Origin: an uncultured Gammaproteobacteria bacterium
GTDB lineage: Bacteria; Patescibacteriota; Patescibacteriia; Magasanikbacterales; JBBTQS01
Direction of reading: 5' to 3'
Assembly: GCA_965230935.1 (NCBI GenBank)
Contig: OZ246400.1
Span: 310,359-374,358 of the forward strand
Length of the DNA: 64,000 bases
Shown: one piece after another, positions 29,263 through 62,349 of the stretch
Layout of the letters: each line of letters opens with the position of its first letter
How positions within the stretch are numbered: position 1 is the first letter of the stretch
Program-made: the position numbers and the translations under genes
Notes under the pieces: generated by a model
Seen by the model: the letters and a program-made list of their open reading frames with translations, nothing else
Database searches by the model: none
What the model was told of the DNA's origin: nothing

Positions 29263-29265
29263 AAA

Positions 29266-31515
29266 CTACTCTTGATCTAATGTTTGTAAAAACTTTTCTC
29301 CTTCAATACGAAAAGTTGGATCTAACTCAATTGCCTTGCGTGTTGCGTTGCGCGAATCGTCAATACGACCAAGCGCTGCATATACTGCCCCCAAGCGAGC
29401 ATACCACGTTGCAAACCAACTTGGCTCTTCGGTCTCTGGTGGCTTGGTCACGACATATTCATAAAACTGTGCAAGTCCCGCTAAATCATCCGCATCAACA
29501 TAGCGCTGCGCAACAAGTTCATACTGACTCGAATTTTCAAAGTTATATCCCAATCGCATAACCTCACCGATCTGCGCCAATCCTTGTTGGAGAGTTGCAT
29601 CATCCTGCAATAACACAAACGCATAATACCAACGCACCAGACCAGAATTGGGTGTACGTTCTACTAACGATTGCGCAAGGGGAAGCGCTTTATCAAATTG
29701 CTGGCTAAACAAATATGCTTGAACAAGCAACAATCCCCCTTCGTCTTTTTGCGAGCTAAATTCAATCAGCTCATTAAACAACTCTTCGGCCCGCAAAAAA
29801 TACTCTGACTCTTTGCTACCCACAGCGAGCTGATAATAATATTTGCCGAGAAATGACTTTACTAAATAAGAACCTGGATGGCGGACGTATACCTGCTCTC
29901 CACGCTCAGCAAATTGCACAATATCTTCTCGCCACATACGACGAATGTGCTCAGGAAGTCCAACTTCACTCTGGTTTTCTGTTTGTTCGTATACCACTGC
30001 CGCAACTGCCCCAGCACCCCAGCGCCAGCGTTCAAAATCATAAGGCGTGTACCAATCAAATGCCCGGTTCAGCTCAGCACGTGCAGAAGTCCAATCATTA
30101 ATATAAGAATATTGCAAACCATTATTCGTAATAAGGGACGAAACCATAGCAGACACACTAAAGCGCCACATGACAACGAGCAATATCAATACACTCCCCC
30201 ATCCAATCATCTGCGCAGTGGTGGACGAAACTCGACGAGGTTCGGGTGTTGGTTGAATCTCTCGCGCCAAAAATATAACAAGTGCAACTATTGTCGTAAT
30301 CGTTAAGTATGTTGCCGCGGTATCAAACAAAAAGAAATTTTGTACACCATAGCCAGCAGCAATAGCATATACGGTTCCGGCCTGGTTGGCACTCAGCGCC
30401 CCTTCTTTGCGCAATCGTAGAACCAAACGCCACAATATAATCACTACAAATACAAAGGCAAGCCCGCCGACGATTCCGGTAGTGGCCAACACCTCCACAT
30501 ACATATTGTGTGGCTTATCAACAAACGTTTCAACATAGGCAACTTCAGTCAGTCGATTATCATAATGCCGATCAAGGATCGTCCGATAATTTTCAGGACC
30601 CCAACCCAGTAACGGACGAGCAGTAAAACCAGTCAACGCCACTGACCAGTTAATCGCGCGTGTTTTCAACGTGCTGGTACTAAGCACATCAGCATAGGAT
30701 GAATTGGCGACAATTGGCGCATCACGATAGACCCAACCTACTGATACCACCAGCACTCCAAGTATTGCCGCACCAATAAGTGTTCGTCGAATCCATCGTG
30801 GCGCTCCAGCAGTAACACCACGATAAAAAAGATATACAGCCATACCCACTACTAGCCCCAACAATGCACCACGTGGTCGAGCAAGAATCATTGCTACTAA
30901 CAAGATGAGTACTGCGATTACCAACCCGATCTTCTTCCACCGCGTTTGTACATACGTCAACAACCAAGGAGCAAGGAGAATATGCAAAGCAATATACCCA
31001 CCCAAAAATACTGGATTACCAAGAGTGCTTGCAATACGATTTGCAGAAAAGTTTGGCAAAAAGTTTGGAATAGCAAATTGAATAAACCCCAAAATCGATA
31101 CTACAACAGCAGTGCCAAAACTGATCATGATAAGACGGTTCCATTGTTCACGATCAACAATACCGCTTCCAAAAATCAGCACGAACAACAATAAGTGCGC
31201 TTGAAAAAACAGACCAGTAGAGCGTGCCATATCTGCCCACATGCTTTGATGGAGATTAACCCCAACCAAAGCACTGATGATATTCACGACAAACAATCCG
31301 ATAATAGACCACACCACCAATGACTTTCGCGGACGAGTTTGTGGCTCTTTGAGCCAAACCCATATCGCCAAGAGTGTGGCAATTCCCATTATCGTCTGCA
31401 AATACACTGCTTTTGGAAAGGAGATTGGAAACAAAGACCATTGCACATATACAAGCGGCACTCCGACAATCGCCGCGACACCGAGCCAATAAATTGTTTT
31501 CTTGATGAGCTGCAT
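29266..31515 (-). CDS. O-antigen ligase/polymerase-like (Wzy_C) membrane protein with C-terminal TPR repeats (paralog 2)
   Basis: Same architecture (RPRGALLGL ... DKPHNMYVEVLATTGIVG, then a TPR tail). Start at Met 31515 (MQLIKK); the ORF-track start 31602 overlaps the upstream paralog. Confidence 0.6.
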   Translation of the reverse strand: MQLIKKTIYWLGVAAIVGVPLVYVQWSLFPISFPKAVYLQTIMGIATLLAIWVWLKEPQTRPRKSLVVWSIIGLFVVNIISALVGVNLHQSMWADMARSTGLFFQAHLLLFVLIFGSGIVDREQWNRLIMISFGTAVVVSILGFIQFAIPNFLPNFSANRIASTLGNPVFLGGYIALHILLAPWLLTYVQTRWKKIGLVIAVLILLVAMILARPRGALLGLVVGMAVYLFYRGVTAGAPRWIRRTLIGAAILGVLVVSVGWVYRDAPIVANSSYADVLSTSTLKTRAINWSVALTGFTARPLLGWGPENYRTILDRHYDNRLTEVAYVETFVDKPHNMYVEVLATTGIVGGLAFVFVVIILWRLVLRLRKEGALSANQAGTVYAIAAGYGVQNFFLFDTAATYLTITTIVALVIFLAREIQPTPEPRRVSSTTAQMIGWGSVLILLVVMWRFSVSAMVSSLITNNGLQYSYINDWTSARAELNRAFDWYTPYDFERWRWGAGAVAAVVYEQTENQSEVGLPEHIRRMWREDIVQFAERGEQVYVRHPGSYLVKSFLGKYYYQLAVGSKESEYFLRAEELFNELIEFSSQKDEGGLLLVQAYLFSQQFDKALPLAQSLVERTPNSGLVRWYYAFVLLQDDATLQQGLAQIGEVMRLGYNFENSSQYELVAQRYVDADDLAGLAQFYEYVVTKPPETEEPSWFATWYARLGAVYAALGRIDDSRNATRKAIELDPTFRIEGEKFLQTLDQE

Positions 31516-31522
31516 ACTGGAG

Positions 31523-33559
31523 TTATTTTCGTGCTTCAATGAGAATGCGTAATCCCAAATCTTTCGCTTGTTGTTCCAATTCTTGCGCTCGCTGCTCGTC
31601 ACCAGACAAACTGTAGAGCATTCCTAAAAACCAATAGGTTCTGGCAATAGATGGGAACTCTTCTATGCGCTTTTCAAGCAGCGCGATTCCACTATCTACA
31701 TCACCAACAGATGCATAAGTCGAGGCAAGCGCATATGAGACATATAAATGATTCGGGGATAGTTGTTCAGCGTGCTTGTACGCATCAAAGGCGAGCGCAT
31801 ACCAATCAGGATGAGCGATTTCTCCAAGATTTTCATACATCTGTCCTAACAAATAAGTTCGTGTAAATATAGTGTAATCACGAGTACATCGCTGCGAATC
31901 TTCAAGAAGTTCACGAGCGACTTGCATTTGCAAATCAGCACTAATCGTTCCTGACTCACTTGCTTGTAACCACGTAAACAACTGTCGAGACCACCAATCG
32001 CACCCGTACCCATAGCTGATTGTTTTTTGATTTTGGTTGATATCCTCTTGCCAAGAAAACCACTGCCGCCCGTCAATCGCCAAACGCGCCTGCCGATGTC
32101 CATAGAGTTGATGAGCCACCAAACTTGTATATCCCACAGCTACAAGCAGAACAAGAACACCAATGACCTGTAAACCAATACGACGGGTATTTCTCAATCC
32201 TATCTTAGTTGAGCGCTCAGAAGAACGGGTAAGTGTGTGACTAAACGCCCACCCGTACAATATCCAAAAGAATAGATGGACACTTATGTGTTCGATACTA
32301 AATATACCGTACACTCCATACGCAATTATCCCACCAATCAAGATTACCCATTGCCAATCAGTGTGCATTGGCCGATCAACTGCTCGAAGCTTGCGCAAAC
32401 CAAACCACACCAACACTCCAAATAACGCTAAGTAGAGCAAAGCGCCAATAAGTCCAGATTCAACAAAAGCAGTAAGATAAAAATTATGCGCATCATCAAT
32501 AAAAATATCAGTAAGTGCCACCTGATCAATAGTGGGATCGAAATACTTTGCAAAAATATGAGGGTATGCTGCTTTTCCCCATCCAGTAAATGGTCGCTCT
32601 ACAATACCCTCCCAAGCACTTTGCCAAAAAACTAAACGCGTCTGCGAAGTTGTAGCCTGAAAATCAAGACGTACCCCCCGCGGTAATTGAACGATTGTTT
32701 GTGGAATAAATTGAACAACTACATATAACAATACTACCAACACACCGATCCATATACTTATCTTTGTTCCTCGAGTAAGTTCCATCTGCTCCACACGACG
32801 CAAACGCATACGATGCCAGATCAATACCACACCCATTGCCACCACACCTAAAATTAACCCAAGAATCGCAGCTCGAGAAGATGAGAGTAGTAGTGAGTAT
32901 ACTATCAGCACACCGACTACACCATGTGCCCCATACCACCACAATTGCTTATTCTTTGATACACTCGTAGTCTGAGACGTTGGGATGTGCACTCCACTTA
33001 TTCCAAGGAGCACTAAGTGCATTAATAAATATCCGGTATAAAATATTGGATTACCAATAGTCACTCCAAAATGAGCAGTAAGAACGTCCGGGAAAAATCC
33101 CACCACATGCACCCCAATAATATTCATCACACTCAATACTGTGGCAACGATCAATGAAAAACGCATTACACGTATCCATTGCTCGCGTGTATGCAGCACA
33201 AATGGCAAAAGCAAACCTACCATTACCAAATGCGCCACAACCCAAACACCATTACCGCGCAACAATGTTCCCCAAATACTTTCTGTTGGATTGACCCCCA
33301 CGACACTGGTAATAATCACCACTACTACATACCCAAGCGCGATTAGGATAAAAGGATTCAAATACCATTTCTTTGATAGACAAATTGCTGGAGTATTCCC
33401 CCTCTTTTTCAACATACTCCGAATTAGCACTCCTAATCCCACCAACTCAATCAATAACAACGCAATAATAATTTTAATACTCACATTGGTCTCCCCAAAT
33501 CCCACCAACACCAACAATGGCGTGAGTGTTAATAAGTACACAAAAATTGATAAACGCAT
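31523..33559 (-). CDS. O-antigen ligase/polymerase-like (Wzy_C) membrane protein with C-terminal TPR repeats (paralog 3)
   Basis: Same architecture (SSSRAAILGL ... DDAHNFYLTAFVESGLIG, then a TPR tail). Confidence 0.6.
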   Translation of the reverse strand: MRLSIFVYLLTLTPLLVLVGFGETNVSIKIIIALLLIELVGLGVLIRSMLKKRGNTPAICLSKKWYLNPFILIALGYVVVVIITSVVGVNPTESIWGTLLRGNGVWVVAHLVMVGLLLPFVLHTREQWIRVMRFSLIVATVLSVMNIIGVHVVGFFPDVLTAHFGVTIGNPIFYTGYLLMHLVLLGISGVHIPTSQTTSVSKNKQLWWYGAHGVVGVLIVYSLLLSSSRAAILGLILGVVAMGVVLIWHRMRLRRVEQMELTRGTKISIWIGVLVVLLYVVVQFIPQTIVQLPRGVRLDFQATTSQTRLVFWQSAWEGIVERPFTGWGKAAYPHIFAKYFDPTIDQVALTDIFIDDAHNFYLTAFVESGLIGALLYLALFGVLVWFGLRKLRAVDRPMHTDWQWVILIGGIIAYGVYGIFSIEHISVHLFFWILYGWAFSHTLTRSSERSTKIGLRNTRRIGLQVIGVLVLLVAVGYTSLVAHQLYGHRQARLAIDGRQWFSWQEDINQNQKTISYGYGCDWWSRQLFTWLQASESGTISADLQMQVARELLEDSQRCTRDYTIFTRTYLLGQMYENLGEIAHPDWYALAFDAYKHAEQLSPNHLYVSYALASTYASVGDVDSGIALLEKRIEEFPSIARTYWFLGMLYSLSGDEQRAQELEQQAKDLGLRILIEARK

Positions 33560-48852: not shown

Positions 48853-49952
48853 GATCGTAGTAAAAGATCAAAATACAATTGTTCATATGCACGAACCATA
48901 TCTTCAATTGCAAAATGCTCATGAGCATGGGTGCGTGCATTTTGCCCAACCACTTGCGCATCTGATCTTCGCTCAATGACAAACTGCACCATCTGTGCCA
49001 GTGCTTCTGAATCCTCAGATGATACAAGATACCCAGTCCTGCCGTGCTCAATCAGTTCTGGAATCCCGCCGACACGAGTGGCTATTACTGGCATACCAGT
49101 GCTCATGGCTTCCATAATCACCAGTCCCAGTCCTTCCCAGCGAGAAGCCAAAACAAACACATCATGCTGTGCGTACAACTCTGGCATTTCATCGGTGGTT
49201 CCGTAAAGCTGTACTTTGTTGACCAACCCCAACAATCGAATCCGATCTTCAAGAATCGAAAGTAACGAACCATTTCCTACAATAGTAAGCGTCCATGGGA
49301 GATCACGGATTGCAGAGAGTGCACTGAGCAACACATCAAATCCTTTTTGCTCTTCAAGGCGCCCGACGCTCAATAATTTGACGTGTGGTGCATCAACCAA
49401 TGACAAACGAGATATCTGCGCAAATCTGGAAAGCTCGATACGATTTGGAATCACGACAATTTTTTTCGGATTCACCTTTTCGACTGTGGTTGCATACTCC
49501 GCAACTGCACGAGAAATCACGATGATCCGATCAGAAATTTTGGCTACCCAGCGCTTGAGGAAATGTTTAAACGATGATTCATCAAACCAGGTGTTATGTT
49601 CGGTCGAAACAATTACCGGCACGCGTGCAAAAAATGCAGCGATTTTCCCCCATACATCTGCGCCAAATAAGTGTGTATGCACGATATCTGGTCGTGCTTT
49701 TCGAAATGCTCGCCACAGCTTGATTGTTAAACGAAATCCGAAATCACCCATATTAGGCATATGAATCACCTTGACCCCGGCATCGCGAATCACGTGTTCA
49801 AACGGACCAAGCGCCACAACCGTGATAACTACCATGGCAAAACGCGACCGGTCATGATATTTTGCAATATCAGCCAACAATCGTTCAGCGCCACCAAAAC
49901 GCAACGTGGGAATAACGTGTACTACTTTGATTTTGATGTTGTTTTTTGACAT
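48849..49952 (-). CDS. GT4 glycosyltransferase
   Basis: WEGLGLVIMEAMSTGMPVIATRVGGIPELI. The internal Met (MSKNNIKIKVVHV) at 49952 is the likelier start. Confidence 0.65.
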   Translation of the reverse strand: MSKNNIKIKVVHVIPTLRFGGAERLLADIAKYHDRSRFAMVVITVVALGPFEHVIRDAGVKVIHMPNMGDFGFRLTIKLWRAFRKARPDIVHTHLFGADVWGKIAAFFARVPVIVSTEHNTWFDESSFKHFLKRWVAKISDRIIVISRAVAEYATTVEKVNPKKIVVIPNRIELSRFAQISRLSLVDAPHVKLLSVGRLEEQKGFDVLLSALSAIRDLPWTLTIVGNGSLLSILEDRIRLLGLVNKVQLYGTTDEMPELYAQHDVFVLASRWEGLGLVIMEAMSTGMPVIATRVGGIPELIEHGRTGYLVSSEDSEALAQMVQFVIERRSDAQVVGQNARTHAHEHFAIEDMVRAYEQLYFDLLLRS

Positions 49953-51424
49953 ACCAATACTTGTGCGGTAGCAATTGCTAATCCAATAGGCAACCACATC
50001 TTTGCGTTATAGTAAGACGTATTTAATAACTGATACACCATAGCACCTAAGACCATCACGATGAGCGCACCAAGCAATCGGCGATCATCCTGTTTTGTGA
50101 TCGTGCGATAAGAGCGTATAAGTGTTGCCATAATAGCCAACAACAATACCACCCATGCAAGTAAGCCGATCATTCCATTTTCTGCAATTACTTTTTGAAT
50201 CATGCCATGGGCATCAAGTGGATCACCGTACTCAATAGCAAAAATCCGAGTATCAGCCACGATCGGAATAAAGCTTCCTGGGCCATTGCCAATCCATGGA
50301 CTGCGTTTAAAATATTCCCAAGAAATCTCGGTCAGATCAAGTCGAGTACTAGTCGAGCCAGCAACCAAGCGACTTGATGAAATTGCCGTCATATAGATCA
50401 CTGCTGGCAAAAGCATGAGCAAAATAACCCCAGCAATTTTCCCGGCATGTTTACCAACTACTGATCGCTTGATCTGTACGCGATACAAATACATGAATCC
50501 CATAAGCTCAACTGCCAGTACAATCCAAGCGGTTCGTGCAAAAGTTAATAGCGCCACCAATGCAATTACTGCGGTAGCCAAAAAATACCATTTCTTTTTC
50601 CAGCTTGCTCGCTCATGATATACAAAGTACACCCCAATAGGAACCATCAACACTAACACTTCCGCTAAGAGATTGTGGTTGTAGCCAAGCGGTGCAAAAT
50701 TACCAATGGCAAATGGAGTGGCACGGTGCCAAAGTCCACCAAATGGACCAACAAAAATAAACGACACAGCTCCCATAAGCGCACTGAGTACGCCAGCAGC
50801 GAAAAACGAGCGCAAGGCACGCAACACCATCTTGCTGTTTTTAATAATACTATTTGGGAGTACCACAAACATGACATACATGAAGATGATTGGGCGCAAA
50901 ATAAACTTAACACCAATCAAGAAAAGCTCCTGATTGGCACCAAATAATGACAGTACATGCGTGAGTACCAACGCCACAAAAAACCAAAGCAAGGGCGTGC
51001 TGCGCATCAGTGAAACCTCACGACGGGGAAGCAACACCAGAATACGCAAAACCAAAGCAGCTAAGAGCACCAACGCGAAAAAATCAACAAATGGTGCGTC
51101 AACCGATGAAAGATATGGAATCCGTCGAGACCATTCATACGATCCAAAATTCACAATCAAGCCGGTGAATGGGGCAAAAAATGCCAACACATACAGACCA
51201 ATATCGAGTCGATAGGCAAAAAAAGCAATTGCTGCCAATGCTAAGAAAATTGCCAAGGGCAACCAACCGGAGAATATTGTGACAATCGCCGCAACGGCCA
51301 GTACGGAAAGCCCGAATAAAAAGGCGGTTTTCCGTTGTTCACCACCAACAATAACTACATCTGAAAAATCAAATGCATCGTCAAGTTGATGGTAGGAAAC
51401 ATCTGTTTTAATTACCCGTGCCAT
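49922..51424 (-). CDS. O-antigen ligase/polymerase-like (Wzy_C) membrane protein without TPR tail
   Basis: 500 aa, multi-TM, with TFARTAWIVL ... DAHGMIQKVIAENGMIG matching the Wzy_C-type loop. Confidence 0.55.
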   Translation of the reverse strand: MARVIKTDVSYHQLDDAFDFSDVVIVGGEQRKTAFLFGLSVLAVAAIVTIFSGWLPLAIFLALAAIAFFAYRLDIGLYVLAFFAPFTGLIVNFGSYEWSRRIPYLSSVDAPFVDFFALVLLAALVLRILVLLPRREVSLMRSTPLLWFFVALVLTHVLSLFGANQELFLIGVKFILRPIIFMYVMFVVLPNSIIKNSKMVLRALRSFFAAGVLSALMGAVSFIFVGPFGGLWHRATPFAIGNFAPLGYNHNLLAEVLVLMVPIGVYFVYHERASWKKKWYFLATAVIALVALLTFARTAWIVLAVELMGFMYLYRVQIKRSVVGKHAGKIAGVILLMLLPAVIYMTAISSSRLVAGSTSTRLDLTEISWEYFKRSPWIGNGPGSFIPIVADTRIFAIEYGDPLDAHGMIQKVIAENGMIGLLAWVVLLLAIMATLIRSYRTITKQDDRRLLGALIVMVLGAMVYQLLNTSYYNAKMWLPIGLAIATAQVLVCQKTTSKSK

Positions 51425-51633
51425 GGTCTGTTTTACTACACTGAAATAATTCCCATTCGTATGGGAAGTACCCCCAGTATACTATAAAAATCGCTCAAAA
51501 TACAGCAGAAAATACTGAAGGCCGGAGGGCGTAGCGAAGTTCATCGCGTTGCCCACCGGCCCCCGGTGTTGTTGTATGTCATGTACGACAGTAGGTGTGT
51601 CAGATCAGACGGACGATCCCCGCCCCAGCACCC

Positions 51634-53649
51634 TTACGGGCAGCAGGAGAGGTTGTAGCCGGAGTCCCCGTTCGTGACCGTGATGCAGCTCAGCGCGGCG
51701 CCACCCTGGGGGGTGACGATCAGGCTGGTGATCACATTGGTCTCGGACGGGTAGTAGGAGTTCGGAGCGAAGTTCTCCGTCTTGTAGGAAACCCACAACT
51801 CCATACAGGCCCCGGCCGGGGCGTCGAACATGCCGCTGAGCGAGGTGCCCAACAACTCGTTCTTGCCCCAGGTGTAGAGCGACTTGTCCCCGGCGTCACC
51901 ACCGGAGTCCTCGTCGTCCTTCCCGGACCAGTTCGTGCAACCGACGAGCGACGTCCAACCAGACGCCGCCGACGGCTCGACCTGCTCAGCATCCAGGCAC
52001 CACCAACCATACAAGGTCGCCCCGTACAGGTCGGTGTTGGCCTGGATGTCGGCGGTGTAGGTGACGACGCCCGAAGGCGGCGCCGGCGCCTGGCAGCTCC
52101 CATCCGGCTCGCAGGTGTACCCCGAGGGGCAACCCACCAACTCGCACGAGTCCTTGTGCACGCACTCGTAGCCGGCTGCAAGCGCCGGCTTCTCGACGCA
52201 CACGTGATTCGCTGCACAGGTGACGACCTTGAGACCGCCATCGAAGCACTGGCCACCCGAGCAGTACGGCAGGCTGCACGCCATGCCATCGCTGTCCGAG
52301 CAGTTCGCGTCGATCGCGCACTCCAGGAACTGGCACTGGCCGCCGAAGCAAGCCGCGCCACCGGAGCAATTCCCACAGTTTCCGCCGCACCCGTCGGCAC
52401 CGCACTCCTTCCCCCCGCAATCGGGGACGCACACCGGCGGCTTGGCCACGCACGTGTGCGTGGTCAGCTCGCACTCCTGGTCCGCGTTGCAGTGCGAGTT
52501 GGACTCGCACATGCCGGGCTTGAGGCTGTACTGACACCCGACCGAAGCCAGGCAGCTGTCGTTGGTCCAGGACTTGCCGTCGCTGCACGCGATCGGCGTG
52601 TACGTGCACGCCCACTCGCCGTCCACCATCTGACAGGTGTCCGACGTGCAGGTGTTGCTGTCGTCGCAGTCGGAACTGCTCGAGCACGCCGGGGGATCCG
52701 GCAACACGCACTGCTTCTCCACACACGGCTCCCCACCGCAGTCCGAGTTCTCCTCGCACTGCGGCTGCACGGCCAGGTCGACCTGGCACTTCCCGCCGGC
52801 GCAGAAGCCGACGGTCGTGGGGTCCCCGGCCGTGATGCACTCCTCGTCACTCGTGCACTCGGGCGGAGGAATCTCGCACGTGCCGGCCACGCAGACCGAC
52901 CCGGCGGCACACGTGCCGCACAGCACCGAAGTGCCGCAGTTGTTGAGATGCTCCCCACACTCCAGCCCGTTGCACGTCTGCACGACGCTCTCGGGCACGC
53001 AGGGCGTGTCGATGGGCGTGTGGACGCACCCCGTGGTGGGGTTGCAGGAGTCCTGGGTGTTCGAGTTCTGGTCGTCGCAGACGAGCGCCTCGAACTGGCA
53101 CCCGCCGCCGCTCACCGAGCAGGAGTCCGACGTGCAGGCATCGCCATCGTCGCACACGGTCACACTCCCCTGGCACGCGTTGGCGCCACAGGTGTCGTTC
53201 TCGGTGCACGGGTTCTCGTCGTCGCACGGCTTGGTATTGGGTGTGTACTCGCACACGCCCGCCACGCAGGCGTCGTCCGTGCAGAAGTTGCCATCATTGC
53301 AGTCCATCCCATCACAGGGATCGACCGGCTCAGCGCACGACCCGCCCTCACAGGCGGCACCACCCGGGCACACCGGCCCGCACTCGCCACCGCACCCATC
53401 GGCCCCGCACTCCTTGCCGTAGCAATCGGGAGTGCAGACGTCCGGCTCGTCGGTGTCGGGCGTGTCCGCATCCGGCTCGTCCGTATCCGGCTCGTCCACG
53501 TCGGGATCGCTCCCCGTGTCCGCATCCGGCTTCTCGGTGTCGGTCATCTGGACGTCGGCCACCTCGTCGGCCGGAACGTCACTCGGGTTACAACCACCTG
53601 CCAGCGCAAGCGCCAGCAGGACGAACGCAAAACGCGTGAGCTGCTTCAT
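51634..53649 (-). CDS. high-GC lipoprotein with Asp/Pro/Thr-rich linker and tandem cysteine-rich repeats (Myxococcota-type CxDxNxCTxDxC)
   Basis: Signal peptide plus lipobox MKQLTRFAFVLLALALAGGC. Repeats CDGMDCNDGNFCTDDAC, CDDENPCTENDTC, CDDGDACTSDSC, CDDQNSNTQDSC, CDDSNTCTSDTC. PDCxGKECGADGCGGxCGxC occurs twice (internal duplication). About 70% GC with GC3 near 90%. The antisense 709-aa ORF is judged spurious. Confidence 0.65.
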   Translation of the reverse strand: MKQLTRFAFVLLALALAGGCNPSDVPADEVADVQMTDTEKPDADTGSDPDVDEPDTDEPDADTPDTDEPDVCTPDCYGKECGADGCGGECGPVCPGGAACEGGSCAEPVDPCDGMDCNDGNFCTDDACVAGVCEYTPNTKPCDDENPCTENDTCGANACQGSVTVCDDGDACTSDSCSVSGGGCQFEALVCDDQNSNTQDSCNPTTGCVHTPIDTPCVPESVVQTCNGLECGEHLNNCGTSVLCGTCAAGSVCVAGTCEIPPPECTSDEECITAGDPTTVGFCAGGKCQVDLAVQPQCEENSDCGGEPCVEKQCVLPDPPACSSSSDCDDSNTCTSDTCQMVDGEWACTYTPIACSDGKSWTNDSCLASVGCQYSLKPGMCESNSHCNADQECELTTHTCVAKPPVCVPDCGGKECGADGCGGNCGNCSGGAACFGGQCQFLECAIDANCSDSDGMACSLPYCSGGQCFDGGLKVVTCAANHVCVEKPALAAGYECVHKDSCELVGCPSGYTCEPDGSCQAPAPPSGVVTYTADIQANTDLYGATLYGWWCLDAEQVEPSAASGWTSLVGCTNWSGKDDEDSGGDAGDKSLYTWGKNELLGTSLSGMFDAPAGACMELWVSYKTENFAPNSYYPSETNVITSLIVTPQGGAALSCITVTNGDSGYNLSCCP

Positions 53650-54161
53650 GGTCGTTTCTCCATACCATGCTGCTGTGGATATTCATGTCGACGCCTTGCC
53701 GACACTATCTCCACAATTCTTTAAACTGTCGATTGGTTCAGTTGTAATGATCATAATGCTCATTTCAACCGTCGCATACAATTATCCCTATTGGATTGCT
53801 GTACGCGACTGTCGAAAAAAGAAGCATGTACTTTGATCGTTCGGCTCAAGGTGCATTATTGAAGGAGGGCACAATAGTGTACCGAACCGAACGGTCACAA
53901 TACATGCTTGACGCAAAAAAAATGAGACCAAACCCCCTTCAATTTGGTTGTAAACTGGTACTACTGTGACGTTGGATAATAGCATAATCATTGCTTTCTG
54001 TCAACCCCTTAATTTAGGTAAAAGTATGATCTTGTATACCCAACACAACAAAAGCAAAATTTTGACTAAATTTAAATAAATTTCAAAGCCCACGGAGAAG
54101 TTCATCCTCGTGGGCTAAGAAGTTGTGTGTTGTGGTTTGATGCTGGCCGCTTACGCGACGA

Positions 54162-55412
54162 TCAGAATGCGGCGCCGCCGCCGAGCGCGCAGGCCCAGCC
54201 CCGCGACTCGTCACCCTGTACATTGGCCCGCCAAGACGGACCGCACACGAGCGCGAAATGCGGCCGAACTGCGTCCGTGACCTCACCCAGGTCGTAGGTC
54301 AGGCCGAACAACAGGTCCAGGTCGTGCCGATCGTAGGCGTCGAAGCTGCTCACGCGCGAGTTCAGGCTCATCCACTCGAACATGCCGCGAAAACGCAACT
54401 GCTCGAGCCAGAGCTTGAAATCGATGCCAAAGCCCAACGCGAACCGCGACGCGACGTTGGAGTCCCGGTCGATGCTCGGGGTGTTCTCCAGGTCGGGCTC
54501 GCCCCCCACGCCGAAGCGCGTGAGCACGAACGCGTCGAACACGCCGTTGAACAGGTTGGCGAACCGCAGCTCGAAGTCCAACGTGCCGGCACCGAGCAGG
54601 TCCTCCTCGCCCATCACGTCATCACCCGCAAAACCCCGCAGGTCAGCGCTCAGGCGCAGAACGAACCGCAACGCGAAGCGCTTGGAAAACTCGTCCAAAC
54701 GCATGTCGTGATCGTCGAGCCGACCTTCGATCCGGTCCAGACGAGGAACGACACCGTCGGTGTCACCGTCGGCGGGGTCGATCACCCCATCGCCGTCCAG
54801 GTCCACGCCGTCGAGACGTCGCTCGAGCACGCTCACCCGGCCGGTACGCTGATGATCCAACGCGTGAAGACGATCGTTCTGGTGCCGATCCAACTGCGCC
54901 TGCTCCCAATCCCGCTTGTGCTGCACGCACACGCTGGTGTCGTAGCTGACCACGACGTACCGCTGACCACGCGGGGCGTTGGTGCGCCCCTGAATGCAGG
55001 TCATGGCCTGCGCCGGCCAACTCAGGCTCTTGCGCTGCGCGTACACCGGTAGCGTGTCCCGGATCTTGGCGCACCGGCCGTTGGCCAGGTCACGCTGCCG
55101 GTCCAGGTTCCCCCGGTGCTCGCCGATGGAGTCGGTGAACCCCTGGGCACGAAAGCGCAGACACTGGTTGGGGCTGTGGTGCACCTCACGCGTCATGCGA
55201 TCGAGGAGCTTGACGGCGGCGGCAGCCGGCGGCCCACCCGGCGTCAAGCCAAGACGCTGGATGCCGTACCGGCCGAACTTGCCCACGTACGAGCCGTCCT
55301 CGGGCATATCCCAGCCCGTAAACGGGTTGCGGGACGCCTGGGCAGACGCCACAGAGGTGAAAAGACACGAAACGATCAAAGCGGCGAGAGCCGCGGCGAT
55401 CCGCTGCTGCAT
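54162..55412 (-). CDS. high-GC secreted OmpA-like domain protein with TSP3-type Ca-binding Asp repeats and beta-rich C-terminus ending in Phe (outer-membrane-protein-like)
   Basis: Signal peptide MQQRIAAALAALIVSCLFTSVASAQA. AQGFTDSIGEHRGNLDRQRDLANGRCAKIRDTL matches the OmpA-C peptidoglycan-binding motif (GxTDxxG..N..LSxRRAxxVxxxL). DLDGDGVIDPADGDTDGV is TSP3-like. C-terminal ...GGGAAF. Confidence 0.55.
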   Translation of the reverse strand: MQQRIAAALAALIVSCLFTSVASAQASRNPFTGWDMPEDGSYVGKFGRYGIQRLGLTPGGPPAAAAVKLLDRMTREVHHSPNQCLRFRAQGFTDSIGEHRGNLDRQRDLANGRCAKIRDTLPVYAQRKSLSWPAQAMTCIQGRTNAPRGQRYVVVSYDTSVCVQHKRDWEQAQLDRHQNDRLHALDHQRTGRVSVLERRLDGVDLDGDGVIDPADGDTDGVVPRLDRIEGRLDDHDMRLDEFSKRFALRFVLRLSADLRGFAGDDVMGEEDLLGAGTLDFELRFANLFNGVFDAFVLTRFGVGGEPDLENTPSIDRDSNVASRFALGFGIDFKLWLEQLRFRGMFEWMSLNSRVSSFDAYDRHDLDLLFGLTYDLGEVTDAVRPHFALVCGPSWRANVQGDESRGWACALGGGAAF

Positions 55413-55556
55413 GGAACTCTCCTATCACCGCCCTTAGCAAGGCGCGGTTATACACACGCCCAGAGGGCAGGCCAACAGGATCTCTTGATGTCGCTCGCTG
55501 CTCCATCTGCATCAATCCTGTGAATGAGCACGAATCAAATAGGTTATCCTACTGAT

Positions 55557-55601
55557 TGCGCAATGAATACTGTCCACTAGCATGAACCTCATTCATTGCG
55601 C
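55557..55601. promoter_or_regulatory. large inverted repeat TGCGCAATGAAT-N22-ATTCATTGCGC upstream of the OmpA-like gene
   Basis: 11/12-bp arms located 145-190 bp upstream of the start at 55412, in an AT-rich spacer. Confidence 0.35.
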
Positions 55602-55842
55602 TCAGTAGACGTATTTGTGATTTCACTCAGAAAATCCGCCTATTTTGAACAGTTCACCTTACCACAATCGCTTAATCTTGTCAAGAGAACAAATTATACT
55701 AAAAAAACCTTTAACTTACCTAAAATTAAACAAAATTCAAGAGAGCCCACACCTTGTATGATTCCGCGGTTAGCGGTACAAAATATGGGCCCGTCTCGGG
55801 TTGTTGTGTTGTGATGTGTGCGCCAGCTACGGCTCAGCCGGC

Positions 55843-57045
55843 TCAGCGACCGAAGATCGGCAACGGTGGCCGCCGGCGTAGTAGCCGTGACCCGTGCGCG
55901 AGAGCCGCTGGAGCCGCTTGTCGCCACCGCGAACGGAGCGACGGGCGAGCCCGACGAGCCGGCCGAGACCGACGCGGCGAGTAGCTGGACGTGTCCGCCT
56001 TGCACTGGTGGGTGCTGGTGTCGCACGTCTTGCCGCTGCCGCACTGCTCGTCCTTGTAGCAACCGCGCACGCACCGGTTGGGCGTCCCCGCCTTGCAGTA
56101 GGAAAGCCCGACGCAGTCCTCGTTCTGGGTGCACTCGTCCGCCTTCACGCACCGGCCCGTGCCCGCGATCGCCTCGCACGTCTCGTTGGAGCCGCACTGG
56201 GCGTCGGACGTGCACTCCTTGAGCGACACGCACTTGCCACGCACGCAGGTCTGATCCGGGGCGGCACACGGCGCCGCGTCCGAACAGGCGCCCGCACGCG
56301 AACTCCGACTGGTACGACGACCCGCCCGACGCGCACGACGCGCACGACGCGTGTCGGCCTGGCGGTACTTCCCCCAGCCGAGCCGCTCAGCGGCCGCCTC
56401 GAGGTAACCGATCTTGTCGTCCTCACTGGCGCCGGTCCGACCCGCGAGCGCGCGCTCCTGGGTCAGCGCCTGGTGGGCGTCGCGCTTGGCCTGCGGCCAG
56501 TAGCGGAAGCTCCCGTCGAACAGAACCACGTCCTCGAGCGTCTCGGCCAGCGTCACGAGCTGATCCACGCTGAACTTCGGAAGGTCGTCCTTGCTCGCCG
56601 CGGCGCCCCCGAAGGTGACGGCCGCCACAGCCTTACGGATCTCACGGTTCTGCACCTCGTCGCCCTCCCAGCGGGAGACGACGTTCTGCCGGAACCAGTC
56701 GAGCTTGGCGGTACGCGTGGACTCGGCGGTCTGCGCGTCGGCGATCGACTGCATGTTCCGCGCGCACGCCGTCGGATCGAAGTCCGGAGCGCAGCACTTG
56801 GGCACGCACGCACCGCCACCGGCGGGCGCGATCGCCCCACCGCCCGGACGTCCGGCCGGACCGCCACCCGGCACCTCGCACTTGGAAGTAACGGTGTTGC
56901 ACTTGGTCGCGCCGTTCACCGGCGCGGCCGCCGCGCACTGCGGGTCGGTCATGCATGGAGATCCGACATCGGCCATGGCCGCCGGGGACGCCAGCGCGAT
57001 GAGCGCGGCGACGAAAATCTTGGAAAAGGGCTGGTTGTTTCGCAT
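55843..57045 (-). CDS. high-GC secreted cysteine-rich protein with Arg-rich low-complexity segments
   Basis: Signal peptide MRNNQPFSKIFVAALIALASPAAMA. N- and C-terminal Cys-rich modules (CVRGKCVSLKECTSDAQCGSNETCEAIAGTGRCVKADECTQNEDC...). The RRARRARRAGRR and PRRSRPARRARP stretches may be real or local frame errors. The antisense 402-aa ORF is judged spurious. Confidence 0.5.
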   Translation of the reverse strand: MRNNQPFSKIFVAALIALASPAAMADVGSPCMTDPQCAAAAPVNGATKCNTVTSKCEVPGGGPAGRPGGGAIAPAGGGACVPKCCAPDFDPTACARNMQSIADAQTAESTRTAKLDWFRQNVVSRWEGDEVQNREIRKAVAAVTFGGAAASKDDLPKFSVDQLVTLAETLEDVVLFDGSFRYWPQAKRDAHQALTQERALAGRTGASEDDKIGYLEAAAERLGWGKYRQADTRRARRARRAGRRTSRSSRAGACSDAAPCAAPDQTCVRGKCVSLKECTSDAQCGSNETCEAIAGTGRCVKADECTQNEDCVGLSYCKAGTPNRCVRGCYKDEQCGSGKTCDTSTHQCKADTSSYSPRRSRPARRARPSLRSRWRQAAPAALAHGSRLLRRRPPLPIFGR

Positions 57046-57305
57046 GTTATTGCCCCCTCCTCGAGGCTCACCTGTTTTGCAGGCTTCTGGAAATGCGAAT
57101 AGAAACTACGGGAGCCATCCCTTAGTGTTGGGAAAAACCCCGGCGGCACAATCGGGATGATCCTCCCATAGTACTGTGTGCCTAGCCAACGACCTCATGT
57201 CGTCTGAGCGGTCCACGAGACCGCCTACGTACCGATAAATCGTCACGCGCCTTGAGGAAGACTGAGTAAACTTAGTTCCTCCTCAGGGATCGCGACAGAT
57301 CCAGT

Positions 57306-57338
57306 TCACTATAGTAACAGATGACGTTACCATAGTGA
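57306..57338. promoter_or_regulatory. inverted repeat TCACTATAGTAAC-N7-GTTACCATAGTGA (followed by TGACAA-gatt-TTGTCA)
   Basis: 12/13-bp arms located about 260 bp upstream of the 55843..57045 gene start, in the AT-rich junction region of the GC island. Confidence 0.35.
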
Positions 57339-57380
57339 CAAGATTTTGTCAAGTAAATGTATTTATTCACAAAATTTAAA

Positions 57381-57411
57381 AAATAGCTAAATTTAAGCTA
57401 TTTTACAAAAA
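57381..57411 (-). terminator. intrinsic terminator of the wzz-like gene (AATAGCTAAATTTAAGCTATT hairpin plus T-run on minus strand)
   Basis: Near-perfect hairpin about 25 nt downstream of the stop at 57433, followed on the minus strand by TTTTTT. Confidence 0.5.
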
Positions 57412-57432
57412 ACGACCTAATTTAGGGGTTAT

Positions 57433-58089
57433 TTAGGAATGCACACCAAACATCACATGGTCATTTTTCTTACCACGTGTACGAGATTCTTTGGCAAATA
57501 ATACGCGCAAAGAGGCTAAAATTAGCCCAAAAAGAAATCCAACAATCGCATTGACGATCAGATTTGGTTTTACTGGAAATCGAGAGGTTACTGGGGAATC
57601 CACTACTTTAAACCCGGTTTGCGGATTAACATAATTTTCTCCATTGGTAATCAAGGTGGTAATAACTGCCTGTGCAGTCAATTGTGCCTGTTGTGGATCC
57701 TCATGATAGGCGGTAATACTCAGTACTCCAGTCCCGGCATGAATCTGTGGATCGATCATCCGTTTCCAAAATCGACGACGTTGCCGCTCAGTTTCTGGAA
57801 AATCACTAGTTACGACTTGAGGTTCGATTGCCATTACTTCTGATAAGAACACACTGGTTTGTACAATTGTGGCAAGGTTCTCCCCGGTACGTTCTGCAGA
57901 CTTAATTACCGTGTACGGATCAATACCAAACCCCTGTCGCGGAATAATCAACACACTTCCGGTTGCGCTGTACTTAAGTGGAAACAACAAACTTAAGCCA
58001 ACAGCAAAAATTGCTACTACGATTCCTACACCAAACAAAAATTTGGAACGCTGGAGAAGAATCAGCAAATAGGATTGCTCAGTTGCCAT
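57433..58089 (-). CDS. polysaccharide chain-length determinant-like protein (Wzz/PCP family, short form)
   Basis: N-terminal TM (FGVGIVVAIFAVGLSLLFP) and C-terminal TM (IVNAIVGFLFGLILASL) bracket a soluble domain. N-terminal LLQRSK...PLKYSATGSVLI is typical of Wzz. Confidence 0.55.
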   Translation of the reverse strand: MATEQSYLLILLQRSKFLFGVGIVVAIFAVGLSLLFPLKYSATGSVLIIPRQGFGIDPYTVIKSAERTGENLATIVQTSVFLSEVMAIEPQVVTSDFPETERQRRRFWKRMIDPQIHAGTGVLSITAYHEDPQQAQLTAQAVITTLITNGENYVNPQTGFKVVDSPVTSRFPVKPNLIVNAIVGFLFGLILASLRVLFAKESRTRGKKNDHVMFGVHS

Positions 58090-61522: not shown

Positions 61523-61969
61523 ATGCCAACCCTAGCTAAAAACAAACGAGCCCGATTTGACTATGAAATCCTTGATACTCTTGAGGCTGGTGTTATGTTG
61601 TCTGGAGCTGAGGCCAAAGCCACGCGAGAGGGGCAGATGAAGTTGGTTGAATCGTATGTCACGTTTAAGGGTGATATCCCCTATCTGACTAATGCGCACA
61701 TTAGTCGGTACAGTAAATCAGATCAGTATGCGCCGTATGATCCAACACGTCCACGAAAGCTACTACTTAAAAAGAGTGAAATCGCAATGTTGATTGGAAA
61801 AAAAAGTCGCGATGGATTGACAATTGTCCCGCTTTCTGCCTATACTAGTCGCGGCGTAATTAAAATTGAGATCGGCCTAGCGCGTGGAAAGAAAAAACAT
61901 GATAAGCGCGAGGTACTCAAAAAACGTGACATTGATCGCGATGTGCGCCGAGACCTTAAACGGGGATGA
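61523..61969 (+). CDS. smpB: SsrA-binding protein SmpB
   Basis: NKRARFDYEILDTLEAGVMLSGAEAK ... LLLKKSEIAMLIGKKSRDGLTIVPLSAY matches SmpB. Start at Met 61523; the ORF-track start is 61505. Confidence 0.8.
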   Translation: MPTLAKNKRARFDYEILDTLEAGVMLSGAEAKATREGQMKLVESYVTFKGDIPYLTNAHISRYSKSDQYAPYDPTRPRKLLLKKSEIAMLIGKKSRDGLTIVPLSAYTSRGVIKIEIGLARGKKKHDKREVLKKRDIDRDVRRDLKRG

Positions 61970-62349
61970 CCGGTATCGATGGGAGTATTCCTGTTTCATT
62001 CTTGCGTATCGAGTTGAGTGTACTCGTAAAACGTGCTCAATCCTATACGTGCAAACGTATACAGCCGAGTGAAAGGAGCTATTGCGCAAGCATTTAGCAC
62101 ACCATCATTCGCACCGGTTGTTGCTTAAGAGCACGCAACCCATCGCCGGCTGATACTTCTAGGCCATCAGCGGTGTCATAAGAAGTGTAGGTCAGTGTGT
62201 CTTCCCAGCATGTTGGCTGAAATTCCGGGATTGGTGTTCATGGACTTTGGCTGTTTGTGGCCATGGACGCGACATTACAAACAGTCTACATACGTAGATC
62301 GGGATGTTGCAGTCTTCCAGACGTGGGTTCAATTCCCACCATCTCCACA
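61962..62349 (+). ncRNA. ssrA: tmRNA (ssrA), standard one-piece form
   Basis: The 5' GGGGATG (61962-61968, overlapping the smpB stop) pairs with the 3' CATCTCC (62340-62346) as an acceptor stem. T-arm GTGGG-TTCAATT-CCCAC at 62323-62339, then discriminator A and CA. Internal frame ...AIAQAFSTPSFAPVVA-TAA is a candidate tag peptide. Followed by a GNRA-loop terminator. Confidence 0.6.

Follow-up and report, generated by a model that had tools for sequence, protein, structure and literature searches.

A gene for a predicted cysteine-rich lipoprotein in a glycan biosynthesis locus

The window (the whole 64,000-nt stretch of DNA analysed here) is a very large biosynthesis locus for cell-surface glycans, in which four Wzy_C paralogs and many glycosyltransferase genes are found, and its host is probably a Patescibacteria/CPR-like ultra-small bacterium. 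The gene under study encodes a predicted Cys-rich lipoprotein of 671 aa, and its features and those of its neighbours are collected in Table 1. It is a real gene with a coherent reading frame: the annotated frame had the highest GC3 in all of the sliding windows placed across the ORF (32/32), and a GGAG Shine-Dalgarno (SD) sequence lies 5' of the ATG. The span and strand of the ORF agree exactly with those given in a preliminary description of this DNA, which had also placed the gene next to polysaccharide polymerase genes; a Wzy_C gene is indeed found directly downstream, with GT4 glycosyltransferase genes nearby. ORFs on the wrong strand exceed the true lipoprotein gene in length at this position. 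An exact-protein look-up of the 671-aa sequence returned no recorded match.

Table 1. Features of the lipoprotein gene and of the genes around it in the window, in order of position.
Feature	Position	Strand	Details or basis
Wzy_C-family membrane protein gene	49922..51424	minus	Pfam Wzy_C; directly downstream, conserved synteny anchor
Terminator-like long GC hairpin and T-run	51505..51568	minus	3' of stop codon; read directly
Cys-rich lipoprotein CDS	51634..53649	minus	ORF list; 671 aa, 79 Cys, 1 Arg, mature pI about 4.05
C-terminal tip, aa 520-671 (152 aa)	51637..52092	minus	Cys-poor, predicted all-beta, orphan
CGG module 3, aa 407-439	52333..52431	minus	in insertion specific to the window protein; gaps in orthologs
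CTDC block 2, aa 321-373	52531..52689	minus	1 full and 1 degenerate repeat; repeat HMM, aa 328-339 and 362-366
Degenerate CGG module 2, aa 216-258	52876..53004	minus	aligns to canonical second CGG module of L001, L002 and L003
CTDC block 1, aa 106-215	53005..53334	minus	four Dicty_CTDC-type repeats; repeat-HMM matches
CGG module 1, aa 72-105	53335..53436	minus	CTPDCYGKECGADGCGGECGPVC...; regex and segment map
Acidic Asp/Pro/Thr/Glu linker, aa 21-71 (51 aa)	53437..53589	minus	composition
Predicted signal peptide with lipobox, aa 1-20 (...LALAGG/C20)	53590..53649	minus	PS51257-type rule
Conserved hairpin RNA, ~110 nt	53809..53922	minus	between promoter and CDS; alignments A2 and A5
Sigma-70-type promoter	53976..54004	minus	TTGACA-17-TATTAT, 11/12, TG extension; scan
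GC-rich orphan gene 2, secreted/lipoprotein-like	54162..55412	minus	416 aa, GC3 0.84; own promoter-like TTGACA and leader
GC-rich orphan gene 3, secreted, Cys-containing	55843..57045	minus	400 aa as called, GC3 0.84
Wzz-like gene, upstream bound of the slot	57433..58089	minus	weak Pfam GNVR, E=0.002

Comparison with related loci showed a collinear gene order that is shared with locus L001 for at least 11 genes and with a contig that NCBI labels Candidatus Azambacteria for 5 genes. The downstream Wzy_C gene is 57-61% identical in L001-L003 and has 33 further metagenome relatives, and the Wzz-like gene shows identities of 61% with its L001 counterpart and 52% with those of L005 and L006. The lipoprotein gene is the least conserved of the syntenic genes, with orthologs 30-35% identical versus 45-74% for the flanking genes. 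All related loci of sufficient length have a lipoprotein gene directly 5' of Wzy_C, and GC3-elevated lipoprotein genes occupy this slot in 12 or more independent assemblies, which were produced by different studies and have backgrounds of 25-55% GC. Two GC-rich orphan genes (genes 2 and 3) stand between the lipoprotein gene and the Wzz-like gene. Gene 2 had no Pfam or PDB match and gave a weak 23% match to the syntenic ORF of L001; an impression by eye that it might be OmpA-like or a beta-barrel was dropped, as no family or structure match accompanied it. The frame of gene 3 is uncertain around its middle and its 3' end, and its Pfam matches were sub-threshold only.

Anchor, linker, stalk and tip of the predicted lipoprotein

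The N-terminus MKQLTRFAFVLLALALAGGC passed the PROSITE PS51257 lipobox rule at Cys20 (pattern [LIVMFWSTAG](2)-[LIVMFYSTAGCQ]-[AGS]-C, with the Cys at position 15-35). The n-region contains K2 and R6, in line with the K or R that the rule places within the first 7 residues, and is followed by the uncharged hydrophobic stretch FAFVLLALALAGG. For this lipobox, VLLALALAGGC, the rule is permissive (A-G-G-C), and its Leu stands at -4, the classical position being -3. Gly19 and Cys20 were invariant in an alignment of four orthologs, and 14 of 16 other slot-occupant entries tested passed the same rule. From these sequences we infer that Cys20 is lipidated and that the 671-aa protein is exposed at the surface. 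No lgt or lspA gene was found among the window ORFs scanned. The linker that follows contains 16 Asp, 8 Pro, 6 Thr and 5 Glu. Part of its DNA is a tandem array at 53441-53497 with a period of 15 nt (5 aa) and 3.8 copies (TRF; repeat family D1), and acidic PDT-rich linkers of comparable kind are present in the orthologs.

The stalk of ~450 aa is built from several kinds of Cys-rich unit. The Pfam family Dicty_CTDC (PF00526) matched the protein at 70.7 bits against a gathering cut-off of 27 (E=8.3e-20, 4 stretches), and a repeat HMM located 5 full CTDC cores (aa 117, 142, 166, 191 and 328) and 1 partial core; the strict motif CxDxxNxCTxDxC occurs 2-3 times. The remaining Cys-rich units of the stalk differ in type from CTDC. 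They include 3 copies of an unnamed 33-36-aa module, which we call the CGG module, and several small Cys knots. The module CxPDCxGKECGADGCGGxCGxC is found at aa 72 and again at aa 407, with a spacing of 335 aa, and the DNA of CGG modules 1 and 3 is 75% identical across 71 nt (repeat D5). Self-BLASTP of the protein detected no duplicated segment larger than the CGG module. Literature searches found no report of this module; modules of the type of CGG module 1 build 36-aa tandem arrays in other proteins, for example P0046.

Among the 120 homologs listed, PF00526 was present in all but P0046. Those with a named source came mostly from Myxococcota or 'Deltaproteobacteria' metagenome-assembled genomes (MAGs), and the best full-length identity outside the protein's own clade, among the homologs listed, was ~31% over 40% of the protein. 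The segment at aa 115-212 shares 57% aa and 66% nt identity with a block in P0068 (also found in P0055), as against only 33-44% identity with the protein's own syntenic orthologs.

The C-terminal tip was searched separately. A word-indexed homolog search with the tip alone and a PDB sequence search each gave 0 matches. Phmmer against 1.84e9 representatives returned 2 real relatives, one of them the L003 ortholog, and did not find the tip in GC-rich organisms among these representatives; a profile of six tips searched against 5.8e9 proteins gave 1 match. The AF2 model of the tip has 9 strands at low confidence (pLDDT 56, pTM 0.54), and Foldseek with this low-confidence model found no match at E<=0.001, the best matches being generic C2/PLAT-like beta-sandwiches (E>=0.035, TM<=0.40). 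Judging from these searches, the tip domain appears to be almost unique to the window's lineage. Different tip domains are carried on the same anchor-linker-stalk plan in L004, L007, L008, L019 and L026.

The preliminary description had recognised much of this organization. The lipobox that it read as LAGGC and its acidic proline/threonine linker both stand, two copies of the CGG module do lie close to the ~340 aa apart that it reported, and the C-terminal domain that it called unrecognisable was assigned to no family by sequence searches and obtained neither a confident model nor a Foldseek match at E<=0.001. Its Myxococcota-style Cys-rich repeats correspond to the Dicty_CTDC family and to the taxonomy of most source-named homologs. 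Its count of at least 12 copies of CxDxxNxCTxDxC was too high by every measure used here (strict motif, Pfam and repeat HMM). The internal duplication holds for the ~33-aa CGG module and fails for any larger segment, as self-BLASTP found none and the orthologs have no counterpart of the insertion that contains the second canonical copy. Of the HMM searches that it proposed, Pfam gave the Dicty_CTDC match, and NCBIfam release 20, with its TIGRFAM-derived Cys-repeat models, gave 0 families at E<=1. The break in GC and codon usage, the shared gene order, the rapid divergence and the hairpin RNA, which are the most unusual features of the gene, are absent from that description.

Proteins of related design are known. 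The C-x-D-x-N-x-C-T-x-D-x-C core in ~24-aa units is shared with Dicty_CTDC proteins, which comprise Dictyostelium extracellular proteins and many bacterial secreted proteins; unlike these, the window protein has 5-6 repeats in two blocks, with other Cys modules interspersed, and is a predicted bacterial lipoprotein whose C-terminal domain is an orphan. The Cys-rich proteins of Myxococcota/'Deltaproteobacteria' MAGs (P0001, P0055, P0068) resemble it in their CTDC repeats and GC-rich codons, and a few of them in the CGG module. They are, however, typically 900-1200 aa long, with regular repeats and uniformly GC-rich genomes, whereas the window protein is a GC-rich exception in an AT-rich genome, with a lineage-specific tip and a fixed slot in a glycan locus. 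Cys-rich extracellular proteins with signal peptides have also been described in CPR Peribacteria, where they are strain-variable and weakly Myxococcus-repeat-like and where a role in attachment has been proposed for them (Anantharaman et al. 2016, PMC4736985); these average ~1655 aa and are encoded in a cluster of 14 genes in a 58% GC genome (PMC4736985). By their description they share with the window protein a CPR-type organism, signal peptides and a very high Cys content, but no GC anomaly, Wzy_C-adjacent lipoprotein slot or leader RNA is reported there (PMC4736985). The type of protein is already known; what is unusual is that GC-rich codons are kept across its relatives and that an undescribed hairpin precedes the gene.

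A conserved hairpin RNA in front of the lipoprotein gene

The lipoprotein gene is predicted from its sequence to be monocistronic, with a strong promoter of the sigma-70 type and a terminator of its own. L001, L002 and L003 retain the -35 and extended -10 elements, and an equivalent terminator hairpin with T-run occupies the same position in L002, L003, L005 and L006. The hairpin RNA between promoter and CDS comprises 32 bp with 96.7% of cells paired, including conserved G-U pairs, and its apical loop reads U[G/A]CCCUCCUU, in which CCCUCCUU is invariant across six genomes. Covariation exceeded the controls in the six sequences: 13 of the 32 pairs had changed on both sides, compared with 0-5 in slid controls, and 0/500 shuffles reached this number. 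The minimum free energy was -40 kcal/mol (z=-7.6; z about -7.5 in four sequences), and the covariance model (CM) R1 scored the sense strand at 92-110 bits versus 20-42 bits for the antisense strand, a gap of 50-80 bits. In covariation, stability and strand specificity, these six sequences have the generic properties of a conserved structured RNA.

The hairpin was found in six genomes only, always directly upstream of the lipoprotein gene. The CM search of 385 kb of related sequence revealed no copies beyond these six: the leaders of genes 2 and 3 gave no match, and neither did L004, L007, L008 and L011. An exact-pattern scan of the metagenome collection gave 0 matches. Rfam 15 identified only tmRNA in the window and nothing relevant within 51300-57600 at E<=1. 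Two further candidates were discarded. A conserved leader peptide inside the hairpin was rejected on account of an immediate stop codon in L002 and indels of 1 and 2 nt, and a CA-rich motif that follows the window's three stop codons was not conserved in orthologous loci as a shared 3' element. RNAs with C-rich loops or anti-SD leaders include the UCCC-loop sRNAs of Firmicutes and the anti-RBS stems in riboswitch expression platforms. Like these, the present element is a stable hairpin with an invariant C-rich, anti-SD-like loop near a gene with a GGAG RBS; unlike them, it has no Rfam match, its loop lies 58-160 nt from the start codon/RBS, and it displays no evident ligand-binding architecture.

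GC-rich codon usage in the slot

The lipoprotein gene and its orphan neighbours, genes 2 and 3, have a GC3 of 0.84-0.88 versus 0.32-0.44 in host genes. A-ending codons make up 1-3% in the slot genes versus 26%, and the codon shift spans the whole gene. The GC3 offset recurs in 10 other loci, with a mean of +0.28 and a correlation with host GC3 of r=0.90. The rise in GC covers the whole transcription unit and ramps across ~100 nt, so that a knife-edge change at start and stop codons was not a discriminating test. The three GC-rich CDSs are interleaved with spacers of ~40% GC that bear host-type promoters. Because four-fold synonymous sites are saturated between the genomes, the GC bias cannot be explained as a relic that is fading away. 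The anomaly was not described in the literature searched. Other GC-elevated orphan ORFs are located at 1.8-5.1 kb in the window.

We conclude that the GC-rich codon dialect of the slot genes is upheld in AT-rich genomes by some ongoing process. It is possible, and we hold it tentatively, that a set of surface lipoprotein and secreted genes in the slot is kept in a 'foreign' dialect, with GC3 0.3-0.5 above the genome despite synonymous turnover. A foreign island acquired once and recently from a donor similar to Myxococcota, or a chimera produced by assembly or binning, would be uninformative on host biology. Codon usage like that of a high-GC organism, stalk homologs that are mostly Myxococcota and the further GC-elevated orphan ORFs all point that way, but an island would hardly be broken up by ~40% GC spacers with host-type promoters, and the same arrangement stands in the same slot in the 12 or more independent assemblies across their whole range of GC backgrounds. 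Within the lineage, conservation extends to promoter, leader and terminator, and the tip is lineage-restricted. The gene also lacks the signs of a recent transfer: L001-L008, L011 and others have it in the same place, and the spacers are host-like in GC. On the sequence evidence an island or chimera appears already largely refuted, and we consider it highly improbable. High GC3 could also be kept by recurrent import, in which stalk modules or whole slot genes are patched through recombination with the DNA of GC-rich neighbours or hosts and never ameliorate. Independent imports would not be expected to give a slot GC3 that tracks host GC3; the non-repetitive genes 2 and 3, which have no Pfam or solved-structure relative, share the dialect; the tip is missing from the GC-rich organisms searched; and in six genomes the CDS is directly flanked by leaders and terminators of host type. 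Import would, on the other hand, account for the likeness of aa 115-212 to P0068, which comes from a uniformly 65% GC genome, over that to the syntenic orthologs (57% aa versus 33-44%), although 66% nt identity is not recent, and it fits tip domains that vary by lineage and orthologs far more diverged than the flanking genes. We regard recurrent import as rather unlikely.

A putative surface protein with exchangeable tips

We propose, with a probability of roughly 0.6, that the gene encodes a fast-evolving binding or attachment protein, a surface lipoprotein of stalk-and-tip design that resides in a fixed slot of the glycan locus and is regulated by the hairpin. The lipid-modified Cys20 would anchor the protein in the membrane, and the 51-aa acidic linker and the ~450-aa disulfide-stabilised stalk would hold the all-beta tip off the cell. 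The slot between the Wzz-like and Wzy_C genes would stay fixed while its occupant evolves fast and swaps tips between lineages. Because fast evolution and tip swapping are typical of proteins that contact cells or ligands, a role in binding or attachment, possibly coupled to glycans, is suggested. The architecture and the precedent of the CPR Cys-rich proteins make an adhesin or ligand binder plausible, although sequence and fold searches linked the tip to no known binding domain. In the sub-clade of the window, the hairpin with its anti-SD-like loop would most likely control expression via attenuation or a translation block, a regulatory mode suggested by its sequence.

Two other explanations bear on these proposals. 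The protein might be mainly a partner or substrate of the Wzy_C enzyme, its Thr/Ser/Asp/Pro linker being O-glycosylated by a PglL/WaaL-like transferase, or the lipoprotein might serve as a scaffold or an anchor for the surface glycan made by the locus. Among the members of Wzy_C (PF04932) are O-antigen ligases and protein O-oligosaccharyltransferases, and the constant position directly 5' of Wzy_C, the PDT-rich acidic linkers in all orthologs and the wealth of Wzy_C paralogs and glycosyltransferases in the locus agree with such a partnership. However, the two genes form separate transcription units with a terminator in between, no glycosylation sequon was identified in the linker, Pfam cannot separate polymerase, ligase and O-oligosaccharyltransferase, and fast evolution with tip swapping better fits an outward-facing ligand binder, so we judge an enzyme partner improbable. 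As to the hairpin, it could be an independent small RNA of ~130 nt that starts from the promoter at 54004, ends at the hairpin and U-run and pairs with SD sequences in trans through its C-rich loop. Its restriction to the position directly upstream of the lipoprotein gene, and to no other place in the 385 kb of related sequence, argues against this, as does the U-run, which is present in 3/6 genomes including the window and absent in L001, L005 and L006. The window itself has the hairpin followed by UUCUUUUUU, the layout of an intrinsic terminator; a second, weaker promoter-like site was found by scan at 53732-53704, between hairpin and ATG, where the sequence is poorly conserved; and CCCUCCUU is complementary to GGAG-type RBSs in general. 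An independent small RNA seems doubtful to us.

The current view of CPR/Patescibacteria is that they live attached to other cells, and few of the molecules that mediate this contact are known. A fixed slot with fast-evolving lipoproteins of swappable tip, beside glycan machinery, offers a concrete candidate set of such contact proteins. With the hairpin comes a candidate for a new RNA, either cis-regulatory or small, in bacteria for which to our knowledge almost no RNA regulators are known. The GC anomaly provides a natural test bed for codon selection versus biased gene conversion versus recurrent transfer in minimal genomes, and a practical warning, as GC-based binning could discard slot regions and gene calling could be misled by longer wrong-strand ORFs. 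If GC3 does stay 0.3-0.5 above the genome through saturating divergence, simple amelioration would be contradicted and a force that acts on particular genes, so far undescribed in genomes of this kind, would be at work; it could be selection on how fast exported disulfide-rich proteins are translated or on how stable their mRNAs are, locally biased gene conversion at a recombination hotspot, or continual import of modules from GC-rich hosts. The codon dialect and the anti-SD-loop hairpin would then mark out, in ultra-small bacteria, a dedicated class of genes for host interaction that is under special regulation.

A Cys-rich predicted lipoprotein with an orphan tip

The target gene occupies exactly 51634-53649 on the reverse strand and encodes a 671-aa product. 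This has 79 Cys and just one Arg, and the pI of the mature protein is about 4. The ATG is preceded by a GGAG Shine-Dalgarno sequence, and its frame had the highest third-position GC in all 32 sliding windows. The forward strand shows a spurious 709-aa ORF; it is longer than the true gene, and longest-ORF gene calling would choose the wrong strand in such GC-rich genes. Both the lipobox and the acidic linker proposed in the preliminary description were recovered. Cys20 of the N-terminus MKQLTRFAFVLLALALAGGC agrees with the PROSITE PS51257 lipobox rule, Gly19 and Cys20 are unchanged across four orthologs, and the linker at aa 21-71 contains 16 Asp, 8 Pro, 6 Thr and 5 Glu, part of it being encoded by a 15-nt tandem array.

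The sole Pfam family detected in the protein was Dicty_CTDC (PF00526; 70.7 bits against a cut-off of 27, in four stretches), which bears out the proposed repeat family; an NCBIfam search gave no match at E ≤ 1. The claim of at least 12 repeat copies was wrong, since a repeat HMM trained on regular homologs located five full cores (aa 117, 142, 166, 191 and 328) and one partial core; the strict Cys motif on which the claim was based occurs two or three times. Small C-x5-C-type knots make up the rest of the Cys-rich region, together with a distinct 33-36-aa CGG module, CxPDCxGKxCGxDGCGGxCGxC followed by two further Cys. As had been described, this module occurs twice in canonical form (aa 72 and aa 407), and a degenerate copy lies at aa 216-258. 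The canonical copies share 75% nucleotide identity over 71 nt, and the second sits inside an insertion missing from the orthologs. Self-BLASTP found no larger internal duplication in the protein, so the duplication suggested earlier holds for the copied module and was otherwise overstated. Other proteins repeat the module in tandem every 36 aa, 11 times in the homologous database protein P0046; it is absent from Pfam, and our literature searches brought up no account of it.

The Cys-poor C-terminal tip (aa 520-671), previously called unrecognisable, remained so: no family was assigned, an indexed homolog search gave zero matches and a PDB sequence search gave none. Only 2 relatives were found among 1.84 billion cluster representatives, one of them the ortholog in the related locus L003, and a six-sequence profile had 1 match among 5.8 billion proteins. 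An AF2 model from a four-sequence alignment contained nine beta strands and no helices (pLDDT 56, pTM 0.54). Foldseek against the PDB returned nothing at E ≤ 0.001, the best weak matches being generic C2/PLAT-type sandwiches with TM ≤ 0.40. The tip is an orphan domain restricted to the lineage, probably with a beta-sandwich fold. One database protein fragment, P0122 (257 aa), carries the first ~100 residues of the tip followed by unrelated sequence; it may have arisen by fusion or frameshift, or be an artefact of assembly.

A fixed slot in a glycan locus

The entire window is one cell-surface glycan locus, encoding sugar-nucleotide enzymes, GT2, GT4 and GT47-like transferases, a flippase, methyltransferases, a GHL15/FG-GAP protein, and DUF11 and DUF5667 proteins. 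Four Wzy_C-family genes are present, three in tandem and one adjoining the target, in line with the reported proximity to polysaccharide polymerase genes. The target is flanked by this last gene and a Wzz-like gene, a position that we call the slot. Searching GTDB genomes with the Wzy_C protein identified three relatives (L001-L003, 57-61% identity), and a profile scan of metagenomes added 33 more. The homolog P0077 was located on a contig labelled by NCBI as Candidatus Azambacteria (Patescibacteria, Parcubacteria group; locus L004), with the order GT4, GHL15, GT4, GT4, Wzy_C and then four Dicty_CTDC genes. Gene order was collinear with the window for at least 11 genes of L001 and for 5 of the Azambacteria contig. 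Because of this synteny, and because two related contigs came from 0.1-µm filtered groundwater, the host is regarded as Patescibacteria-like. The 'uncultured Gammaproteobacteria' label of L001-L003 conflicts with the Azambacteria synteny and is probably unreliable.

At least one lipoprotein gene lay directly upstream of Wzy_C in every related locus with enough upstream sequence. Among 16 other slot-occupant entries, 14 passed the lipobox rule; the L001 ortholog failed it at both candidate starts. True orthologs with the same plan of anchor, linker, stalk and tip were found in L001, L002, L003, L005 and L006, Cys-rich lipoproteins bearing different tips in L004, L007, L008, L019 and L026, and unrelated lipoproteins in more distant loci. 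The four slot genes of L004 show that the slot has expanded in some lineages. The target shared only 30-35% identity with its orthologs (40% between L001 and L002), flanking genes shared 45-74% between genomes, and genes 2 and 3, the orphan secreted-protein neighbours upstream of the target, could be aligned barely or not at all. The slot position is kept, and its occupant evolves very fast.

Maintained GC-rich codon usage

The target and genes 2 and 3 (51600-57100, reverse strand) are 66-70% GC with GC3 of 0.84-0.88, compared with GC3 of 0.32-0.44 for all neighbouring genes examined; the spacers between them are ~40% GC and carry TTGACA-type promoters. The shift involves all codon families: A-ending codons make up 1-3%, against 26% in host genes, and GAG, AAG and CAG usage reaches 94-100%. 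A mere NNC preference of highly expressed genes was rejected, since G-ending codons rise as well as C-ending ones. The same-site anomaly recurred in at least 12 related assemblies, with GC3 in slot versus host genes of 0.49-0.57 versus 0.17-0.23 in L001, 0.65 versus 0.33 in L002 and 0.70-0.85 versus ~0.5 in L004; L005-L008, L011 and L019 behaved likewise. Across 10 loci, GC3 of the Cys-rich gene correlated with the host median (r = 0.90, mean offset +0.28). This recurrence and correlation rule out a chimeric assembly as well as a one-off island. At third positions of conserved four-fold codons, between-genome similarity was no higher than chance for flanking and slot genes alike (e.g., 0.31 observed versus 0.30 expected). 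Turnover of the synonymous sites is therefore complete, and a single ancient transfer whose signal is now fading cannot account for the bias.

Some process maintains the bias of the slot genes. It could be selection acting on translation or the mRNA, gene conversion with a local bias, or DNA from GC-rich organisms that is imported repeatedly or patches individual modules. Patching is favoured by target aa 115-212, which a block of the database protein P0068, from a uniformly 65% GC genome, matches at 57% (amino acid) and 66% (nucleotide) identity, more closely than any syntenic ortholog does. As the whole answer, however, it sits poorly with the use of the same codon dialect by the non-repetitive genes 2 and 3, the correlation with host GC3, the restriction of the tip to the lineage, and the host-type promoter, leader and terminator that abut the CDS. 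The GC elevation covers the whole transcription unit with a ramp of ~100 nt, and a boundary test is thus non-discriminating.

Three GC3-rich orphan ORFs near the start of the window, one of which resembles a membrane protein, may belong to the same phenomenon or be separate foreign DNA. In gene 3, GC3 periodicity departs from the annotated frame at ~56300-56385 and 55843-56025, coinciding with odd Arg-rich translations (RRARRARRAGRR..., ...RRSRPARRARPSLRSRW...). Frameshifts, errors in sequencing or a 3' end called wrongly would be suggested causes.

A conserved hairpin RNA, probably a leader, upstream of the lipoprotein gene

The target gene is predicted to be monocistronic, with a sigma-70-type promoter and, after the stop codon, a long terminator-like GC hairpin and T-run; such a hairpin with T-run also follows the gene in L002, L003, L005 and L006. 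Between promoter and CDS lies a hairpin element present in six genomes, every copy directly upstream of this gene. All six copies adopt a shared 32-bp fold (-40 to -54 kcal/mol, z ~ -7.5), with 96.7% of alignment cells paired. Two-sided changes occurred in 13 pairs, against 0-5 in slid-register controls and 0/500 shuffles. Conserved G-U pairs and a CM score 50-80 bits higher in sense than in antisense assign the structure to the mRNA strand. The predicted structure is well supported, though from only six sequences; an Rfam search gave no match. Its 10-nt loop, with CCCUCCUU invariant, resembles an anti-Shine-Dalgarno sequence, and pairing with the RBS is possible, although any loop of this kind would trivially be expected to allow it. 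Three of the six copies (window, L002 and L003) are followed by a U-run, which L001, L005 and L006 lack. The element may act in the leader as an attenuator, control translation, or be a small RNA in its own right.

In L003, a single ORF spans the leader, being open already upstream of the hairpin and joining the lipoprotein CDS in frame. The gene as called in the database, P0121 (654 aa), begins inside the leader RNA, so its true signal peptide appears to be internal. A CA-rich CACAACACAACAAC-like motif precedes the post-stop hairpins of the three GC-rich genes and was not conserved across the orthologous loci examined. The window also carries a tmRNA gene whose tag peptide, ANVYSRVKGAIAQAFSTPSFAPVVA, is unusually long.

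Coordinates of features in the window and related loci
Feature	Sequence	Position	Strand	Remarks
Three tandem paralogous Wzy_C-TPR membrane proteins	window	27181-33559	-	693, 778, 678 aa
Gene 2	window	54162-55412	-	
Gene 3	window	55843-57045	-	
Spurious ORF	window	51595-53724	+	
Orphan ORF	window	1837-2520	+	GC3 0.77; no Pfam family, not Cys-rich
Orphan ORF	window	2671-3360	+	GC3 0.73; no Pfam family, not Cys-rich
Orphan ORF	window	4540-5010	-	GC3 0.71; no Pfam family, not Cys-rich
Sigma-70-type promoter	window	54004-53976		11/12; upstream of target; kept in L001-L003
Leader hairpin	window	53809-53922	-	~110 nt, nearly invariant
Leader hairpin	L001	7812-7922		
Leader hairpin	L002	138-254		
Leader hairpin	L003	1870-1983		
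Leader hairpin	L005	4005-4116		
Leader hairpin	L006	3499-3610		
Four Dicty_CTDC lipoprotein genes	L004	7523-17920		733, 572, 423, 1184 aa; all GC3-rich (0.70-0.85); same slot
ORF through leader	L003	1846-3900		
CA-rich motif	window	51560-51590, 54110-54135, 55800-55830	-	
tmRNA gene	window	61962-62348	+	

Relation to known proteins and inferred role

The target protein is a Dicty_CTDC-type Cys-rich secreted protein and thus of a known kind. It resembles proteins abundant in Myxococcota and, in kind, the Cys-rich extracellular proteins of CPR Peribacteria (PMC4736985), but differs from both in being a compact predicted lipoprotein that bears an orphan tip and is encoded at a fixed slot of a glycan locus. 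Its interest is raised by the maintained GC-rich codon dialect of the slot genes, their fast turnover at a fixed site and the previously undescribed leader hairpin, all of which go beyond the preliminary description. From the conserved slot and its very fast-evolving occupant, we infer that the protein may serve in outward-facing binding or contact, a contact role for which CPR Cys-rich extracellular proteins provide a precedent (PMC4736985).
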